Below are positions 2,779 through 51,294 of a stretch of 51,344 nucleotides of DNA, piece by piece. The first letter of the stretch is position 1. Every line of letters begins with the position of its first letter. The stretch is from Candidatus Buchananbacteria bacterium (GTDB taxonomy: Bacteria > Patescibacteriota > Patescibacteriia > CAIXNZ01), in the NCBI GenBank assembly GCA_014729025.1, contig WJKP01000017.1:1-51344 (forward strand). Reading direction: 5' to 3'. Made by a program: the position numbers and the translations under genes. The notes below the pieces were generated by a model. It saw only the letters and a program-made list of their open reading frames with translations. It was not told the origin of the DNA and did not search any database.

Positions 2779-3834
2779 TTATTCTTCTAATCGCATTTCA
2801 ACTGATCTTTTTTTATCCAAAAAATCCTGAACAAAAACACTTAAAGCTGTAACCACTGGAATTGCCAAAATCACCCCTATTAGCCCGGCCAATTTCCCGC
2901 CAATCAATAAAGCTATAATACTGACTACAGGATTTAAGCCGACTGTTTTTTGCATTATCATTGGCACAAAAATATGATTTTCAAAAAATTGAATAACAAT
3001 ATATAAAATCAAAACCCAAAGCGCCATTAACGGTGACTGAAATAAAGTTAAAAAGACAGCAATAAAACCTGACAAAAAAGGGCCTAAATAAGGTATAAAT
3101 TCTAATAAACCGGCGATAATAGCCAAAATCAAAGCGTATTTAACCCCGGAAACAAGCAAAGCGAAATAAACCAAAAGAAAAATAATAAAACCTAAAATCA
3201 ATTGCCCTCTTAACCATAAGCCTAATTTTTGCTGGATCCGATTTACCAATTGGTACGCATAAGGTAATGATTGACTTGGCACCAATTGACGCAAAACTTT
3301 TTTTATGGCATTTTGCTCAACTAAAATATAAAAAGTTATTACCAAAATAATTATCAAAGAAACAATGCCGGCAAAAAAATTACCGACCCTGGCAAAAATT
3401 TCACCGGTTGAATCAGGAAATTGCAGTTTAAATGATTGGAAAAATGATTCCACACTTTTATCAATACCGTACTGGTTTAAAAAATGGCCGACATTGGAAA
3501 ATTCAATGGTCATTTTCTGCCAATAACGAGGGAAATTGGCTGATAACTGTTGCACTTGATCAATAATCGGTGGGATTAATAAAATAAAAATTAAAGCCAC
3601 TACTGCCACTAAAACCAAATAAACAATAATAACCGATAAAAATTTAGGGATTTTTTTGTTTCTTAACCAATCGACAATCGGTTCCAAAACTGAAACTAAA
3701 ATAATTACAAAAAACAAAATTGCTACAACATCCTGAATTAAATACAAAATCCATAACAAAAACAAAACTATTAAAATCTTAATAATCGAATTAGTGGAAA
3801 TTTCAATATTAATTTTTTTATTACTAATAGCCAT
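2779..3834 (-). CDS. AI-2E family transporter (PerM/UPF0118)
   Basis: 351-aa polytopic ORF with family-typical blocks LGLWLRGQLILG and LEFIPYLGPFLSG. Confidence 0.8.
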   Translation of the reverse strand: MAISNKKINIEISTNSIIKILIVLFLLWILYLIQDVVAILFFVIILVSVLEPIVDWLRNKKIPKFLSVIIVYLVLVAVVALIFILLIPPIIDQVQQLSANFPRYWQKMTIEFSNVGHFLNQYGIDKSVESFFQSFKLQFPDSTGEIFARVGNFFAGIVSLIIILVITFYILVEQNAIKKVLRQLVPSQSLPYAYQLVNRIQQKLGLWLRGQLILGFIIFLLVYFALLVSGVKYALILAIIAGLLEFIPYLGPFLSGFIAVFLTLFQSPLMALWVLILYIVIQFFENHIFVPMIMQKTVGLNPVVSIIALLIGGKLAGLIGVILAIPVVTALSVFVQDFLDKKRSVEMRLEE

Positions 3835-4973: not shown

Positions 4974-5056
4974 CACTTCGCCTCAACTTCGTTGATGGCT
5001 CAGTGTCTCGCTGACACTTTGAGCGAAAGTACTGACGAACGACGTGAGGAAGTTGA
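4974..5056 (+). repeat. tRNA/tmRNA 3'-trailer element, copy 1 (after ssrA)
   Basis: Starts CACTTCG one base after the tmRNA discriminator A; shares blocks CTCAGTGTC, GCGAAAGT, CTGACGAACG, GTGAGGAAGTTGA with copies at 11183, 12289 and 51210. Confidence 0.7.
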
Positions 5057-9533: not shown

Positions 9534-10535
9534 TTATTTTAAATCTTCAATAGACTTTATATTCTCGTCCACATATTGAGGAACCGCAAGTCCCAGCCAG
9601 GTCTGGGTAATATTTATACCGGCTATTTCCAGCTGATCGCCTTTTTCTTCCCAATATGATTGATGCGTAGTAGGTAACCAACCAGCTACGCTAACATCTA
9701 TTTGTTTGTCAGCAAGTGAAGTATAAACAACACCGCTATCCATTTCTTTAACTTCTGTTTGATAACCGATCTCTTCAAGAATAGCAGCTACAACACGACT
9801 TTTAACAGTCGCTCCCGGCCAAGGTGGAATACCAATAGTTATGGCATCTTTACCTAAATCAGTTTCTTGCGATGGTAGCCATTTTTCAATAAGATCCCGA
9901 TTTTCATCAACATATTCATCAGCAATAACTTCTGGATCTTTATCCTGTACATTTAATTGATAAATCCAATTGCTTTGAGTATCAGAAGAAACATTAAAAT
10001 TTTGGAAAAAATTATACGCCACAGGAGCATCATTTTTAAAGCCTTGATAAACTACTGTAGCAATTACATCTGATGATACTTCGGCGGCAGAATATTCTGG
10101 AGCAAATTCCTTCAAAAATTCTTTAGTTGCTTGGGGATCATTATAAATATTCTCAGGATCCTCAAGTTTACGTAAATCAGCTATGGCAAAAGCTGAATGT
10201 GGTTCCCAAACTGTAGCAATAATCGGCTCATTATTTTCAACTGAATCTTGTAGTGCCGACATCATAGCAGCAGAACTGCTTGCTGAAAGCTGCCAACCAG
10301 CCTTTTCAAGAGTGTATTTATCCATAGCTTTCTCAGTATTAATCATAATACCTGCTCCAGGATCAATCCCCGTAATAGTGAAATCAACTGCTCCTGCAAA
10401 AGCAGATTTTGAGATATTATTTTGTTGTTCCAGTGCTTGTTGCTGCTCTCCGCTTGACATTAACCAAATCACAACAGCGCCAATAATTACAAGGGCAATG
10501 ATAATTGGCACATAATTTTTTTTATTTTTTTCCAT
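9534..10535 (-). CDS. glycine betaine-type ABC substrate-binding protein (OpuAC/ProX family), TM-anchored
   Basis: 333-aa ORF; N-terminal TM without lipobox Cys; OpuAC-like block PPWPGATVKSRVVAAILEEIGYQTEVKEMDSGVVYTSLADKQIDVSVAGWLP. Confidence 0.8.
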   Translation of the reverse strand: MEKNKKNYVPIIIALVIIGAVVIWLMSSGEQQQALEQQNNISKSAFAGAVDFTITGIDPGAGIMINTEKAMDKYTLEKAGWQLSASSSAAMMSALQDSVENNEPIIATVWEPHSAFAIADLRKLEDPENIYNDPQATKEFLKEFAPEYSAAEVSSDVIATVVYQGFKNDAPVAYNFFQNFNVSSDTQSNWIYQLNVQDKDPEVIADEYVDENRDLIEKWLPSQETDLGKDAITIGIPPWPGATVKSRVVAAILEEIGYQTEVKEMDSGVVYTSLADKQIDVSVAGWLPTTHQSYWEEKGDQLEIAGINITQTWLGLAVPQYVDENIKSIEDLK

Positions 10536-10678
10536 ATGCCTTAAGTTATTTATTAGTTTAAACTTATTTTTTTTAATTTAACACAATTTTATCTGATTGA
10601 CAAGCCAAAATTTAAATATTGCTTATCTTAAAATAATTTGCTAAAGTAAAATAAATCCAAATAACAGGAGGGGTGAAA

Positions 10679-10819
10679 ATGATAGCAAATATATTAAGTT
10701 TAAACATTATTTTTGCTGCTGGAATCATGATTGTAATGGGCAGTAAAAAAAATAATAAATACTTATATATTGGAGGAATAATTGTAGCTATATTAGGTTT
10801 ATTACCAATTTTTATTTAA
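10679..10819 (+). CDS. 46-aa two-TM small membrane protein (below ORF-track cutoff)
   Basis: ATG preceded by AGGAGGGGTGAAA; MIANILSLNIIFAAGIMIVMGSKKNNKYLYIGGIIVAILGLLPIFI; hairpin AAGCTTC..GGAAGCTT downstream. Confidence 0.45.
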   Translation: MIANILSLNIIFAAGIMIVMGSKKNNKYLYIGGIIVAILGLLPIFI

Positions 10820-10892
10820 ATTTTTTTTTAATCAAGCTTCTCAAATACCTAGGAAGCTTTATTTAATGAGCTTAATATAATCATTGTTCATT

Positions 10893-10925
10893 AAACCCCA
10901 GCGATAATATCAACGGGGTTTTTGT
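10893..10925 (+). terminator. terminator hairpin AAACCCCAGCGATAATATCAACGGGGTTT plus T-run
   Basis: Stem CCCC/GGGG with GAT-ATTATC core; related in sequence to hairpins at 11411 and 12418. Confidence 0.5.
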
Positions 10926-10947
10926 TTTAATAAAAGCACACCAAGCC

Positions 10948-10976
10948 TTGCCAAACATAAAAATTAATGCTATAAT
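10948..10976 (+). promoter_or_regulatory. sigma70-like promoter TTGCCA-N17-TATAAT
   Basis: TTGCCA 10948-10953, TATAAT 10971-10976. Confidence 0.55.
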
Positions 10977-10982
10977 AGTTTC

Positions 10983-11053
10983 ACAAGGATTTCAGTCATA
11001 GGCTGCCTGTCTGCCTGTGGCAGGATCCGCCTTTAGCGGAAATTCCTTTTTTT
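10983..11053 (+). ncRNA. candidate ~70-nt structured RNA or leader upstream of tRNA-Asp
   Basis: Closing stem AAGGATTTC/GAAATTCCTT, inner hairpins CTGCC..GGCAG and CCGC-cttta-GCGG, then T7. Confidence 0.3.
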
Positions 11054-11108
11054 GTTTTAAATATATGAAGTTCGTATTTTATACTCACTACATTAATTTT
11101 ACTTTTAT

Positions 11109-11182
11109 GGGGGCGTAGCTCAGTTGGTTAGAGCGCTTGCCTGTCACGCAAGAGGTCGCGAGTTCGAGTCTCGTCGTCCCCG
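11109..11182 (+). tRNA. tRNA-Asp (GTC), CCA not encoded
   Basis: Acceptor GGGGGCG/CGTCCCC (one G-T pair), D-arm GCTCAGTTGGTTAGAGC, anticodon loop CTGTCAC, T-arm GCGAGTTCGAGTCTCGT, discriminator G. Confidence 0.9.
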
Positions 11183-11262
11183 CACTTCGGTCTTCACTTC
11201 GTTCAGACCTCAGTGTCTAAAGACCTTTACCGAAGTCGCTGACGAACGTAGTGAGGAAGTGA
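11183..11262 (+). repeat. tRNA 3'-trailer element, copy 2 (after tRNA-Asp)
   Basis: CACTTCGGTCTTCACTTCGTTCAGACCTCAGTGTCTAAAGACCTTTACCGAAGTCGCTGACGAACGTAGTGAGGAAGTGA; followed by terminator AAATAACCACC-tttc-GGTGGTTATTT. Confidence 0.75.
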
Positions 11263-11265
11263 CAA

Positions 11266-11295
11266 AAATAACCACCTTTCGGTGGTTATTTTATT
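11266..11295 (+). terminator. rho-independent terminator after tRNA-Asp plus trailer
   Basis: ATAACCACC-tttc-GGTGGTTAT followed by a T-rich run. Confidence 0.7.
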
Positions 11296-11410
11296 TTGTA
11301 TAATTTTTTCATTACATTTTCATTAAATCTATTTTTAAAAAAAATTAATTCTCAAATTAGTTTTTTTGATTAGGTCTACGAGACGGTTAGAACTTTAAGA
11401 AATAAAAAAA

Positions 11411-11435
11411 GACCCAGCGATGTTATCACTGGGTC
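11411..11435 (-). terminator. terminator hairpin of cassette 1
   Basis: GACCCAGCGAT-gtt-ATCACTGGGTC with a T-run on the minus strand; overlaps the stop codon. Confidence 0.6.
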
Positions 11436-11776
11436 ATATCCAATGCGTTTTTTATTATTGGTCTGTATTTTTCAGGGGTTTTAATCTTATAACCTATACT
11501 TTCCCATCCTCTAATATTTCCTTTCTCACATTCGCCTGCACCAATTGCAGTTGGCAAATCTGCAGGATTTTTCCCAAGAATACCTCTATGCCAAGCACTC
11601 CATAGTAAATCTTTATGTTCAAAAATTTCGAAAGAACCGACAAGAAGTAAATCATTCTTTTGTCCAATTTGCTCTTTGGGAAAAAATAAAAATTTACAGG
11701 CTTTTGTTTTATGACTTTGGGAATTATAATCTACAGCTTGTTTTGGTCTCTTACTTATAAATTTCACAATTATCAT
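11426..11776 (-). CDS. hypothetical protein (cassette 1)
   Basis: 116-aa ORF, perfect SD AAAGGAGGTG, own promoter; no family recognised. Confidence 0.6.
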   Translation of the reverse strand: MIIVKFISKRPKQAVDYNSQSHKTKACKFLFFPKEQIGQKNDLLLVGSFEIFEHKDLLWSAWHRGILGKNPADLPTAIGAGECEKGNIRGWESIGYKIKTPEKYRPIIKNALDMTQ

Positions 11777-11803
11777 CCTTTACACCTCCTTTTTTGATTT
11801 TAT

Positions 11804-11832
11804 ATATTATCATTTTTTTGCAAAAAAGTCAA
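11804..11832 (-). promoter_or_regulatory. promoter TTGACT-N17-TAATAT for cassette 1
   Basis: Minus-strand TTGACT (11827-11832) and TAATAT (11804-11809), 17-nt spacer. Confidence 0.55.
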
Positions 11833-11851
11833 GCGTTTTACATTAACAAAC

Positions 11852-11868
11852 AGTTCCAACATAGTCAA
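11852..11868 (-). repeat. 17-nt cassette box, copy 1 (TTGACTATGTTGGAACT in gene sense)
   Basis: Exact match to 12921-12937; 16/17 overlap with 12263-12278. Confidence 0.8.
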
Positions 11869-11931
11869 TAAGGCTCCGTGGGTATCAGAAAAACAAGGTA
11901 TTAACCTTGTTTTTCTATTTTATGGAAATTT

Positions 11932-12213
11932 CTATTTGTTAGTGGATACACAACTATATTCATTAAATTTTACTTGCTTCCAATTACCATTCTTAATAAA
12001 GCAGAATAATTTATTATTTATATTTTTATATATCAGTATAGTGGTACAAGTTCCTTTAATATCATAAACTCCTTCCATTGAAGACGCCTCACAATGCTCA
12101 AACTCTTCAGTAACATTATATGTTGGATTAAATTTTATATTGAGCCCAATAACAACAATTAAAAATACAATTATGATTAGGACTAAAAATACAATTTTAG
12201 AATTTTTTTTCAT
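11932..12213 (-). CDS. small Cys-containing exported/membrane-anchored protein (cassette 2)
   Basis: 93-aa ORF, N-terminal TM/signal (IVFLVLIIIVFLIVVIGL), 5 Cys in the mature part. Confidence 0.5.
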   Translation of the reverse strand: MKKNSKIVFLVLIIIVFLIVVIGLNIKFNPTYNVTEEFEHCEASSMEGVYDIKGTCTTILIYKNINNKLFCFIKNGNWKQVKFNEYSCVSTNK

Positions 12214-12262
12214 AAATATTTTTTAATAATCTATGTTCATATAATATCATAATTAACCAATT

Positions 12263-12278
12263 GTTCCAACATAGTCAA
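12263..12278 (-). repeat. cassette box, copy 2
   Basis: GTTCCAACATAGTCAA on plus strand, 3 nt from the duplicated tRNA-Asp 3' end. Confidence 0.8.
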
Positions 12279-12281
12279 CTA

Positions 12282-12368
12282 GTCCCCGCACTTCGGTCTT
12301 CACTTCGTTCAGACCTCAGTGTCTAAAGACCTTTACCGAAGTCGCTGACGAACATAGTGAGGAAGTGA
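12282..12368 (+). repeat. orphan duplicate of tRNA-Asp 3' end (7 nt) plus trailer element (copy 3)
   Basis: 87 nt matching 11176-11262 at all but one position (A at 12354 versus G at 11248). Confidence 0.9.
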
Positions 12369-12370
12369 TA

Positions 12371-12402
12371 CGAAACTAGAACTTTTTCAAGTTCTAGTTT
12401 TT
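12371..12402 (+). terminator. hairpin terminator after trailer copy 3
   Basis: AAACTAGAAC-ttttca-AGTTCTAGTTTTT. Confidence 0.55.
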
Positions 12403-12457
12403 GGTTTCAAATAAAAAGACCCTTTGATATTATCGCCGGGTCAGGGTTCTTCGTTCG

Positions 12458-12661
12458 TTATGTTTCTGACTTTGGAATGGCAGTAATAATCCCGCAAAAT
12501 CCTACGTAAAATAAGATTGAAGATACTGCTATCACATAGCCAATACCTGTAAACTTCGTATCAGGCATATAGCCATATAAAAGCAAAGAAAACATTCCAC
12601 CTAACATTGCTGCCCAAGGCAGAAAGAACAAGTAAGGTCCGAGCCATCGTAATTTTTTCAT
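12458..12661 (-). CDS. 67-aa two-TM small membrane protein (cassette 3, second gene)
   Basis: SD AAAGGAG; hydrophobic helices; related terminator hairpin GACCCTTTGAT-att-ATCGCCGGGTC at 12418-12442. Confidence 0.5.
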   Translation of the reverse strand: MKKLRWLGPYLFFLPWAAMLGGMFSLLLYGYMPDTKFTGIGYVIAVSSILFYVGFCGIITAIPKSET

Positions 12662-12674
12662 CTTTTTCTCCTTT

Positions 12675-12860
12675 TTAAGATATCTCTTTCTTAGTCTTCT
12701 CTTTTTTGGGTATGATTAGGGCTGCCAATCCCATAAGGACAGCTACCAAGATAAGGAAAAGACCAAGGTCTTCTTTTCTGGGGATTGATAGGATTGCCAT
12801 TCCAATAGCCGAAATAAAGCCAGCGATTACAACAAGTATCAAAGCGATATTTTTCTTCAT
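12675..12860 (-). CDS. 61-aa two-TM small membrane protein (cassette 3, first gene)
   Basis: Perfect SD GAAAGGAGGAA; MKKNIALILVVIAGFISAIGMAILSI... Confidence 0.55.
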   Translation of the reverse strand: MKKNIALILVVIAGFISAIGMAILSIPRKEDLGLFLILVAVLMGLAALIIPKKEKTKKEIS

Positions 12861-12886
12861 TTCGAATTCCTCCTTTCTGATAATTT

Positions 12887-12915
12887 AACTTATCAAAAAA
12901 AGATTAAAATGTCAA
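12887..12915 (-). promoter_or_regulatory. promoter TTGACA-N17-TAAGTT for cassette 3
   Basis: Minus-strand TTGACA (12910-12915) and TAAGTT (12887-12892). Confidence 0.45.
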
Positions 12916-12920
12916 CAAAT

Positions 12921-12937
12921 AGTTCCAACATAGTCAA
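12921..12937 (-). repeat. 17-nt cassette box, copy 3
   Basis: AGTTCCAACATAGTCAA on plus strand, identical to 11852-11868. Confidence 0.8.
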
Positions 12938-13003
12938 TTAGACGCCACATTAAATAAAAAAAGAACCAATAGTATGGGTTCTTTTTTTTATTTTATTAAA
13001 TTA

Positions 13004-13588
13004 CTATTTTTTATTATTCTTCTTAACCAAATTATAGGTCTTAGCCAATAAAGTTAATATTTCAGCCGTGTTTTTTTCTGATTTTAAATCAATTTGATAA
13101 TCAAGCTCAGCTCTTTGATCCTGCACTTCTGACTGACGATTTTGTGAAATTAAAATAAAAGTAGCTAATAAAATCGCTTCCAAGGAAACAATCAAAGTTA
13201 ATAACCCAAAAGGAAATGGATCAAACGGATTTTCAATACTTAAATTATAAATCAACCAGCCTGCAAACCAGACAATATGAATATAAATAAAATTCATACT
13301 ACCACAAAAATCAGTAATTGCATCGGAAATTTTATCAGTAAGCGTTTCGTTGCTTTCAATTTCCTTTCTTATATTTTTAGTGAGTGTTAAAATATGCTTA
13401 TTAGTCTCTAACCAATCCTGTTTATTGCCTTTTTCAATACAAATTTCACAAGGCGAAGCGACTTCGCCTTCAATCATGGCCTGCAAATTACCGCAACGAG
13501 AACACTTATAAATCAAATCTTTTTTAGATTTTTTACCGACTTTTAAAATTTTATTTTTTTGAACCATATTTTTATAATTAATTGCCAA
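13004..13588 (-). CDS. DUF1003-family membrane protein with N-terminal zinc ribbon
   Basis: CSRCGN...CEIC; DUF1003-like block ITDFCGSMNFIYIHIVWFAGWLIYN...DPFPFGLLTLIVSLEAILLATFILISQNR. Confidence 0.7.
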   Translation of the reverse strand: MAINYKNMVQKNKILKVGKKSKKDLIYKCSRCGNLQAMIEGEVASPCEICIEKGNKQDWLETNKHILTLTKNIRKEIESNETLTDKISDAITDFCGSMNFIYIHIVWFAGWLIYNLSIENPFDPFPFGLLTLIVSLEAILLATFILISQNRQSEVQDQRAELDYQIDLKSEKNTAEILTLLAKTYNLVKKNNKK

Positions 13589-19985: not shown

Positions 19986-20486
19986 CTAAAAAAAATCCAT
20001 TAATTTTTCGGTACCATATTCTTTATAATAATCCTTAAAACTACTAAATTCATAATCTTTTAATTCTTCATGATTTTTAACTAAACCATGCTTTATTGGA
20101 TTACTATGTATATAATTAAAATGCTTATAAAAATCATCTTCGTCTCTAATACAATAATCCCAATAATTCCACCAAATTTGTCTGCCAGGCATATTTTCAA
20201 ATTTATTCAAATCATAAGAAGCACCGCCATTAATAGATCTTATGATTGCTGGCAACTTATTGCCATTTTTTAATAAAAAAAGCAGATGATAATGATTCAT
20301 CAAAACACTCCAAGCAAATAATTTTAAATTGAATTTTTCAACAGTTAAAATTATTTTATTTGAAAGTATTCTTATTTTTTCTTCATTATTAAAAAATCTC
20401 TTAGCTTTTATTGTTCTGGCAGTAATAAAATAAATCTGATCATCTAAATAAACATGACATGGGATATGTTTAGGAAATCTTTTCAT
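19986..20486 (-). CDS. REP-associated tyrosine transposase-like protein (IS200/Y1 HUH superfamily)
   Basis: HUH motif MNHYHLLF; catalytic-Tyr block FNYIHSNPIKHGLV. Confidence 0.8.
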   Translation of the reverse strand: MKRFPKHIPCHVYLDDQIYFITARTIKAKRFFNNEEKIRILSNKIILTVEKFNLKLFAWSVLMNHYHLLFLLKNGNKLPAIIRSINGGASYDLNKFENMPGRQIWWNYWDYCIRDEDDFYKHFNYIHSNPIKHGLVKNHEELKDYEFSSFKDYYKEYGTEKLMDFF

Positions 20487-34121: not shown

Positions 34122-34730
34122 TTAATATTCAAAAAAATCAATTTTAAAAACGGCTTGATCATTTAATTCATAATTTCGCCAGGAACAATATTTATATAAA
34201 CTAATATCCTTGACTAAACCTGCTTTAAGCGGATTTGTATGTATATAATCTAATTTTTCTTGAAATTTTTTATTAGAATAAATATTGAAATCATAGAAAC
34301 CAGGCTGCCAGATTCTATATTTCAAACCTCTATTGTGATTATTGTTTTCCTTGCGGAGCTTTTGTTCCATATTGGATCTCTTCCTACGAGTAGAATGGAG
34401 CATCTGCTCCATTCGGGAATTATCTGCCAAGAGCAGATGCTCATGGCTACCCAATGACGTGTATAAATCTATTATCCTTCTGGCGGTAGCTCCCTTTAAC
34501 CTTTGAACAATATTTGAAATAGTTAAATTTTTATCTTCAAAATAAATTAAAGCGTGAAAATGATCCGGCATTATTACGTAACCATATATTTTCAATGATA
34601 ATTTATTTCTATAAAAATTTAATTCTTCTAAAAATAACTGACAACATTTATCATCTTTAAAATAATTTTTATTATTAAATGTACGAAAAGTTACAAAATG
34701 AATGTCACCTACTGAATTAAATTTTTTCAT
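34122..34730 (-). CDS. RAYT-like HUH-Y1 transposase homologue with ~45-aa internal insertion
   Basis: HUH MPDHFHALI; YRIWQPGFYD; catalytic-Tyr block LDYIHTNPLKAGLV; no REP hairpins seen nearby. Confidence 0.75.
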   Translation of the reverse strand: MKKFNSVGDIHFVTFRTFNNKNYFKDDKCCQLFLEELNFYRNKLSLKIYGYVIMPDHFHALIYFEDKNLTISNIVQRLKGATARRIIDLYTSLGSHEHLLLADNSRMEQMLHSTRRKRSNMEQKLRKENNNHNRGLKYRIWQPGFYDFNIYSNKKFQEKLDYIHTNPLKAGLVKDISLYKYCSWRNYELNDQAVFKIDFFEY

Positions 34731-51209: not shown

Positions 51210-51294
51210 CACTTCGCCCTTCACTCCGTTCAGGGCTCAGTGTGTCTTTCGACACCCTCGAGCGAAGTCATTGACGAACGTAGTGAGGAGGTGA
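51210..51294 (+). repeat. tRNA 3'-trailer element, copy 4 (after tRNA-Val)
   Basis: CACTTCGCCCTTCACTCCGTTCAGGGCTCAGTGTGTCTTTCGACACCCTCGAGCGAAGTCATTGACGAACGTAGTGAGGAGGTGA. Confidence 0.75.

Follow-up and report, generated by a model that had tools for sequence, protein, structure and literature searches.

The stretch of DNA analysed here (the window, 51,344 nt, the contig WJKP01000017.1) belongs to a Candidatus Buchananbacteria genome (G000; 1.08 Mb, 97% complete), and this report concerns a row of small gene units directly behind its tRNA-Asp gene, at positions 11184-12947, each closed by a copy of a conserved 36-nt site that we call D2. The tRNA-Asp(GTC) gene (11109-11182/3, plus strand; ARAGORN, and Rfam with 72 bits) is the only tRNA-Asp gene in the whole-genome tRNA list. 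The initial annotation had pointed to an 87-nt direct repeat that starts inside this tRNA, and the repeat is indeed present, with 11176-11262 and 12282-12368 agreeing at 86/87 positions and differing only at 11248 (G) and 12354 (A). Its identity begins 7 nt inside tRNA-Asp (GTCCCCG) according to the ARAGORN and Rfam placement of the tRNA; a repeat search returned the pair as 11167-11262 and 12273-12368, which enclose the near-identical 87-nt blocks. The sequence directly 3' of the first copy, from 11263, is CAAAAATAACC, and that directly 3' of the second, from 12369, is TACGAAACTAG. The bracketed 1019 bp (11263-12281) carry, as annotated, a 116-aa and a 93-aa open reading frame (ORF), both on the minus strand and with promoter-like and terminator-like sites, and are single-copy in the 1.08-Mb genome.

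The features of the region are given below, with the cassette limits and roles as proposed in this report; T denotes an 80-nt trailer element, and G and L numbers denote genomes and loci used for comparison.

11176-11182, plus strand: last 7 nt of tRNA-Asp, GTCCCCG, the proposed primary attachment core
11184-11878: putative cassette A, made up of T1, terminator, P', 116-aa ORF and D2a
11183-11262, plus strand: T1, 80-nt structured trailer (nhmmer, 82 bits), putative leader of cassette A and current tRNA-Asp trailer
11265-11292, plus strand: intrinsic terminator behind T1
11374-11393, plus strand: P' motif GTCTACGAGACGGTTAGAAC, an imperfect inverted copy of D2 plus core
11426-11776, minus strand: cargo of cassette A, a 116-aa protein, with its own terminator (11411-11435) and promoter-like site (11804-11832)
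11842-11878, plus strand: D2a, putative end site of cassette A, with degenerate core TAAGGCTCCG
11879-12288: putative cassette B, made up of terminator, 93-aa ORF and D2b
11887-11916: leader terminator of cassette B, a module of GGGTATCAGAAAA and hairpin common to G006 and L170
11932-12213, minus strand: cargo of cassette B, a 93-aa ORF with a hydrophobic N-terminal stretch and no Pfam family
12252-12288, plus strand: D2b with core CTAGTCCCCG, putative end site of cassette B; its last 7 nt open the second repeat copy, and the same site occurs in G001
12289-12947: putative cassette C, made up of T2, terminator, two small hydrophobic ORFs and D2c
12289-12368, plus strand: T2, an orphan T, putative leader of cassette C, read as a former tRNA-Asp trailer
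12369-12405, plus strand: terminator hairpin behind T2, overlapping a degenerate P'-like sequence, TACGAAACTAGAAC
12413-12443: terminator-like repeat by the cassette C cargo
12458-12661 (67 aa) and 12675-12860 (61 aa), minus strand: cargo of cassette C, two small hydrophobic ORFs
12911-12947, plus strand: D2c, putative end site of cassette C, with core TTAGACGCCA

The conserved flank starts at 12952. The D2 motif, TTAACAAATA-GTTCCAACATAGTCAA-CTAG-NCCCCG, has three copies in the genome, all on the plus strand of this locus (starting at 11842, 12252 and 12911), and they are about 81% alike. At the second repeat copy, the 3' end of D2 is the 7-nt core GTCCCCG itself. In both kinds of site the conservation stops exactly at the tRNA end or at the core end, with variable sequence beyond, and an intrinsic terminator follows within 20-40 nt of nearly every D2-core, as one would behind a tRNA gene.

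The trailer T, which the initial annotation had noted as part of the repeat, belongs to a genome-wide family of tRNA trailers and is not specific to this locus. The nhmmer search gives 11 sites in the genome, and T lies directly behind 10/43 tRNA and tmRNA genes, beginning immediately 3' of the discriminator base (tmRNA, Asp, Val-TAC, Val-GAC, Ala-TGC, Lys-TTT, Lys-CTT, Arg-TCG, and Ile-GAT). The copies are located in the window at 4974-5056, 11183-11262 and 51210-51294, and on other contigs of the genome at C52:3023-3182, C29:858-939, C41:5281-5361 and 3631-3705, C18:6606-6685 and C4:38529-38600. A second T follows in tandem at tRNA-Ala, and a partial second T at tRNA-Val. The orphan at 12289-12368 is the only first-copy T that is not on a tRNA or tmRNA. 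Since T otherwise always abuts the end of such a gene, a displaced trailer is the best reading of the orphan, which follows 7 nt of tRNA-Asp end sequence. T1 folds with a z of -4.5, and the two helices of the family are 86% paired with 3 compensatory pairs. T1 and T2 are identical at 79/80 positions, whereas the other copies are only about 70-85% alike. The 3' end of T (GTGAGGAAGTGA or GAGGAGGTGA) resembles a Shine-Dalgarno sequence. T matched no Rfam family, and a scan of 10500-13500 against Rfam at E <= 1 gave only the tRNA above chance-level support.

For comparison with relatives we used a family set of 14 genomes, consisting of G000 and 13 other species, of which 6 genomes bear D2 and 8 do not. 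D2 was found in 5/13 of the other species (G001, G003, G004, G006, and G011), with 1-3 copies each, located 0.7-2.8 kb downstream of tRNA-Asp and oriented like the tRNA. The cargo between these sites is unrelated, comprising a GIY-YIG protein, a shikimate-kinase (SKI)-like P-loop protein, GrpB, an S-adenosylmethionine (SAM) methyltransferase and unknowns; the cargo of L171 is a Dcm-like methyltransferase, named from its sequence pattern only. The closest comparison is G001, which is of the same genus as G000. The two genomes have identical tRNA-Asp genes, with flanks of about 88% identity, yet G001 has no T at tRNA-Asp and no cargo in common with G000, which is the opposite of one old duplication shared by all relatives. 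Behind the first D2 of G001 come CTAGTCCCCGC and then another terminator. As D2 with CTAGTCCCCGC exists where tRNA-Asp has no T, the GTCCCCG that follows D2 is an old component of the site and not newly copied from the tRNA.

The geometry of the array recurs in other genera and other CPR classes, with different trailers. In G011 (labelled Candidatus Falkowbacteria), about 45 nt behind the D2-core repeat the genome's own tRNA-Asp trailer, which is unrelated to T, and in L071 and L111 a tRNA-Gln trailer is likewise repeated after the D2-core. In L082 and G001, the sequence following the core is common to successive D2 sites. The metagenome contig L169 carries D2 with CTAAACCCCG joined directly to a different T variant, providing an independent D2-core|T junction. 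A module of core, terminator and P' is 88-89% identical behind tRNA-Asp in G004 and behind D2 in L169 and L170, and the cargo around these modules is unrelated, the two methyltransferases being only 32% identical.

An exact 16-mer scan with one genome per species extended the search beyond the family and returned at least 120 loci. Among the matches listed, to which the statements up to the largest array refer, about 39 sites in about 36 other loci have the extended motif, and nearly all of them belong to the Microgenomates of the candidate phyla radiation (CPR), namely Levy-, Woese-, Davies-, Curtiss- and Gottesmanbacteria. The roughly 8 nt behind GTCAAC-YAG follow the type of the neighbouring tRNA, with GGCACCGC at tRNA-Ser, GTGCCAGC or GAGCCAGCCA at tRNA-Gln and G(T/C)CCCCG at tRNA-Asp. 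A co-oriented tRNA lies no more than 1.6 kb upstream in 14/26 evaluable D2 loci, and an opposite-oriented one in 0/26. The largest array, that of L082, has five sites within 8 kb. Cargo ORFs on the plus strand end at or within D2. Within the class of the source genome, D2 exceeds the control level in the family of G000 only, and its distribution is therefore patchy. Several D2 arrays are found in metagenome-assembled genomes (MAGs) labelled Gammaproteobacteria/Pseudomonadales (L057, L064, L075, L082, L093, L101, L102, L105, and L112); several of these show Levybacteria-type tRNA-Ser/Arg clusters, and their taxonomic labels may be wrong.

We consider it probable, at roughly 0.6, that 11184-12947 consists of three small cassettes stacked by successive site-specific insertions at the 3'-terminal 7 nt of tRNA-Asp (GTCCCCG). 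Each cassette would start with a leader that acts as tRNA trailer and terminator for as long as it lies next to the tRNA (T with a terminator in A and C, a plain terminator in B), continue with a body of one or two self-expressed small genes and end in the conserved 36-nt D2, whose 3' end would imitate that of tRNA-Asp. As a free circle, a cassette would have its D2-core fused to its leader; recombination of the core of the circle with the tRNA 3' end would then place the cassette directly behind an intact tRNA, and the previous leader would be displaced to behind the D2-core of the newcomer, with D2 serving as the element-side arm in the serial insertion. The 87-nt repeat would be core and T at the heads of A, as the present trailer, and of C, as the former one, with A and B between them, so that T2 would have been the tRNA trailer before A and B arrived and T1 the leader of a newcomer. 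What is directly observed is the anatomy of the array, that D2 is conserved and confined to this locus, that the cargo turns over between relatives, and that the geometry recurs elsewhere.

The att-like reading of the initial annotation is thus partly supported and in need of sharpening. The integration geometry is upheld by the relatives, but the bracketed insert corresponds to two of the three cassettes of an array and not to one element, and the supposed duplication of the tRNA 3' end has to be revised, given that at the second copy these 7 nt are part of a conserved 36-nt site older than the event. The suggested decayed island is unlikely, because the integrase is missing from inserts of 0.15-4.6 kb at about 40 loci. 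A miniature element mobilised in trans is the closer description.

Several points weigh against serial insertion. T1 and T2 are 99% identical and the D2 copies only about 81%, as would also be expected from recent copying at the locus. An exact match between core and resident tRNA is seen in some genomes only, and in G004 and G011 a core of GCCCCCG stands against a tRNA end of CGCTCCG. D2 shows no dyad symmetry, whereas the core sites of tyrosine and serine recombinases show dyads, and no dif-like relative or palindrome with D2 arms was found anywhere in G000. Among the matches listed, a tyrosine recombinase occurs in only 1 of about 36 D2 loci of 8 kb, and an ortholog of the XerA/IntI-like recombinase described below in only 1/16 D2-bearing Microgenomates genomes. 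The only public read run holds 5% of the sampled words, giving no usable coverage, and a second strain of the species is not on record by an exact-junction scan of metagenome contigs and by exact-protein look-ups of the flanking DUF1003 and pgi genes, neither of which gave a match.

The absence of an evident enzyme and the close similarity of T1 and T2, set against about 81% among the D2 copies, would also suit homologous exchange, in which D2 and T would be conserved anchors, cassettes would be exchanged or added through RecA once DNA from related strains had been taken up, and T2 would have arisen by local duplication or gene conversion of the tRNA-Asp end with its trailer. The modules of core, terminator and P', at 88-89% identity between genomes, could serve as homology arms. 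A core of 7-11 nt is, however, too short for RecA-dependent recombination, and such exchange leaves unexplained the 16/16 identity of D2 in distant CPR classes, the way its 3' end tracks the neighbouring tRNA type and the conservation that ends exactly at the tRNA or core end; we regard it as unlikely. Slightly less probable still is that T itself is mobile and copies to positions behind tRNA-like 3' ends, the orphan having landed at the GTCCCCG mimic of D2b, so that the 1019 bp were never inserted. The position of T exactly after the discriminator of 10 tRNA and tmRNA genes, its tandem copy at tRNA-Ala and partial copy at tRNA-Val, its presence at tRNA-Asp in G000 and not in G001, and the second D2-core|T junction in L169 all agree with this idea. 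Yet copies other than T1 and T2 are only about 70-85% alike and give no sign of a recent genome-wide spread, a mimic of 7 nt offers a weak target in comparison to a complete tRNA, and the duplication is repeated in G011 and L071 with trailers other than T.

The least likely of the explanations that we weighed, and an improbable one, is that D2 is a regulatory or expression signal of small accessory genes (a minus-strand promoter or operator, or a signal at the RNA level) and that the array grew by unrelated processes. All three D2 copies of the window do lie upstream of minus-strand ORFs, and D2b overlaps the minus-strand promoter-like sequences TTGACT-18-AATTAT and TTGGAA-17-TATTAT with TG upstream of the 93-aa ORF, but most other arrays have plus-strand cargo ending at D2, and the site is always co-oriented with the tRNA, whatever the strand of the cargo. 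Terminators stand between D2 and the tRNA transcript, and a regulatory role leaves the tRNA-end mimic and the repeated trailers unexplained.

For the preferred reading of serial insertion, we infer the recombination reaction, its direction, the circular intermediate and an enzyme acting in trans. The initial annotation had noted no recombinase in the window; this holds for tyrosine recombinases, but two IS200-like Y1 transposase genes are present (19986-20486 and 34122-34730, Pfam). The genome elsewhere encodes two tyrosine recombinases and one large serine recombinase. One of the tyrosine recombinases, an XerA/IntI-like protein of 270 aa, is encoded on contig C33 about 500 nt from tRNA-Ser(GGA) and, by its co-occurrence with D2 in the family (5/6 D2-bearing against 1/8 D2-free genomes; one-sided Fisher p ~0.016, uncorrected for phylogeny), may be considered a weak candidate for the array enzyme. 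Against the model TIGR02249 it scores 212 bits (cut-off 265), with a match that is split in two and misses the part specific to IntI. The other one, an XerC/D-like recombinase of 315 aa, is found in every family genome, and its co-occurrence therefore says nothing either way. Its gene adjoins a reverse transcriptase gene (Pfam RVT_1) at C3:595-4137 (L007), beside which lies an ORF resembling, by eye only, a four-helix-bundle (Avd-like) protein; this region may be a diversity-generating retroelement.

Two further enzymes were considered and rejected. The large serine recombinase (438 aa) is found in 1/6 D2-bearing and 5/8 D2-free family genomes, a distribution that opposes a role; in G000 its gene adjoins an ORF read, from sequence only, as a terminase. 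The IS200-like Y1 transposases are present in 14/14 family genomes regardless of D2 and show no association, and Y1 genes were not found in 4/16 D2-bearing Microgenomates genomes, including one with a five-cassette array. In G008, which has no D2, a 518-aa large serine recombinase frame that is 31% identical to that of G000 lies directly downstream of tRNA-Asp (C41:5576-6643 of that genome), so that this tRNA is also host to a different type of element.

Other roles for D2 itself were also rejected. As a dif site it has no GC-skew switch, no dyad and no relative in the genome. As a coding remnant, its reverse-strand 'VDYVGT' frame is open for just 15-121 aa and is not a gene; the plus-strand frame through D2 stops in CTAG variants only. 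An attC-like hairpin site formed by D2 and P' was dismissed as P' occurs in a minority of sites only. P' recurs behind leader terminators in related arrays and is not general. Its conserved form, TTTTTTTGATAGG-GTCTACGAGACGGTTGGAAC-TTT, is also seen in G004, G006, G001, L169, L170 and L171, in a minority of cassettes, and its reverse complement resembles D2 and the 3' half of tRNA-Asp. The sequence GTTGGAAC, allowing up to one mismatch, lies within 160 nt downstream of 6/53 D2 sites, and the best shuffled motif gives at least as many.

With regard to the cargo, the 116-aa ORF is recorded from the source contig alone. Its protein belongs to a small uncharacterised family with 39 representatives, in which F29, H54, A80, G81 and W91 are invariant, and no relative was found in Pfam or PDB. 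The closest homolog (L168) is 50% identical and has a similar terminator overlapping the 3' end of the gene; it is located among ordinary-looking chromosomal genes with no D2 nearby. Stand-alone GIY-YIG genes (80-100 aa, Pfam ID PF01541) are repeatedly the first gene behind a tRNA. They directly follow tRNA-Asp in G001, G006, G011 and L171, and in G000 one lies behind tRNA-Val and its T on contig C38, which continues the end of the window; another is located just before tRNA-Ser (C33:12953-13237).

The surroundings of the array differ between the two genomes of the genus. The unit of tRNA-Asp and array is inverted against its flanks between G000 (window 10940-12950) and G001 (C1:10690-14959), with the pgi/DUF1003 side located right of the array in G000 and left of the tRNA in G001, and similar terminator hairpins stand in inverted orientation at 10897-10928 and 12409-12440. 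In G001, C1:1385-1500 (L010) holds a 13-nt copy of the tRNA-Asp 5' end (GGGGGCGTAGCTC) about 100 nt upstream of the intact gene, with a GC-rich element resembling a repetitive extragenic palindromic (REP) hairpin between the two. In these genomes, several tRNAs are flanked by similar GC-rich hairpins.

Among known systems, the array is integron-like, yet by their defining features it belongs neither to the integrons nor to the tRNA-targeting islands. As in sedentary chromosomal integrons and in integrase-less clusters of attC sites lacking integron-integrases (CALIN), there is one array per genome, made of small one- or two-gene cassettes that each end in a co-oriented conserved site, the cargo genes (toxin, methyltransferases, unknowns) are mutually unrelated and turn over quickly, and the sites within one array are more alike than the sites between genomes. 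Unlike in integrons, no intI gene or integron integrase lies beside the D2 array, D2 is defined by its 36-nt sequence without the R''-L''/L'-R' palindrome of attC, the arrays dock on a tRNA 3' end, and the cassettes have their own promoters and terminators and face either way.

Elements and islands that target tRNA genes with tyrosine integrases reportedly include a class with a 3'-end sublocation. The D2 arrays share with them the direct repeats with a tRNA 3' end that bracket an insert (at 11176 and 12282 and also in G011 and L071), the intact tRNA to which the incomer supplies a new 3' flank, and the stacking of successive insertions in tandem. In contrast to these islands, no integrase lies in or beside any D2-array insert, the units are single-gene cassettes of 0.4-1 kb, the identity block covers only the last 7 nt of the tRNA and then 80 nt of trailer, and D2, the arm on the element side, is conserved between CPR classes. 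Integrative mobile elements exploiting Xer (IMEX) and the pdif modules of Acinetobacter are small and integrase-less and use a host recombinase in trans. D2 cassettes are also small and integrase-less and would need a host recombinase in trans, but D2 lacks a dif-like 11-6-11 dyad, and its sites are direct-oriented and located at a tRNA rather than at the replication terminus, with no GC-skew switch here.

CPR bacteria have genomes of about 1 Mb with few recognised mobile elements, and to our knowledge the gain and shuffling of their accessory genes are poorly understood. Full-text searches of the literature gave no description of such arrays. We tentatively propose, at somewhat less than even odds, that CPR/Patescibacteria may possess a gene-capture platform of their own that evolved independently of integrons, in which a site of about 36 nt mimicking the end of a tRNA (Asp, Ser, or Gln) would dock self-contained mini-gene cassettes serially, each bringing a new trailer and terminator, and in which the recombinase would be encoded elsewhere, being either a co-opted Xer-type enzyme or an unrecognised one. 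On the cassette reading, the 80-nt tRNA trailer element can travel within cassettes. The 36-nt motif offers a search handle for arrays and their cargo in metagenomes and a defined substrate for identifying the enzyme. If true, a conserved tRNA-docking cassette site that recurs in several CPR classes with no linked integrase would amount to a compact gene-exchange system for these bacteria, and the problem solved by integrons would have been solved a second time, independently.

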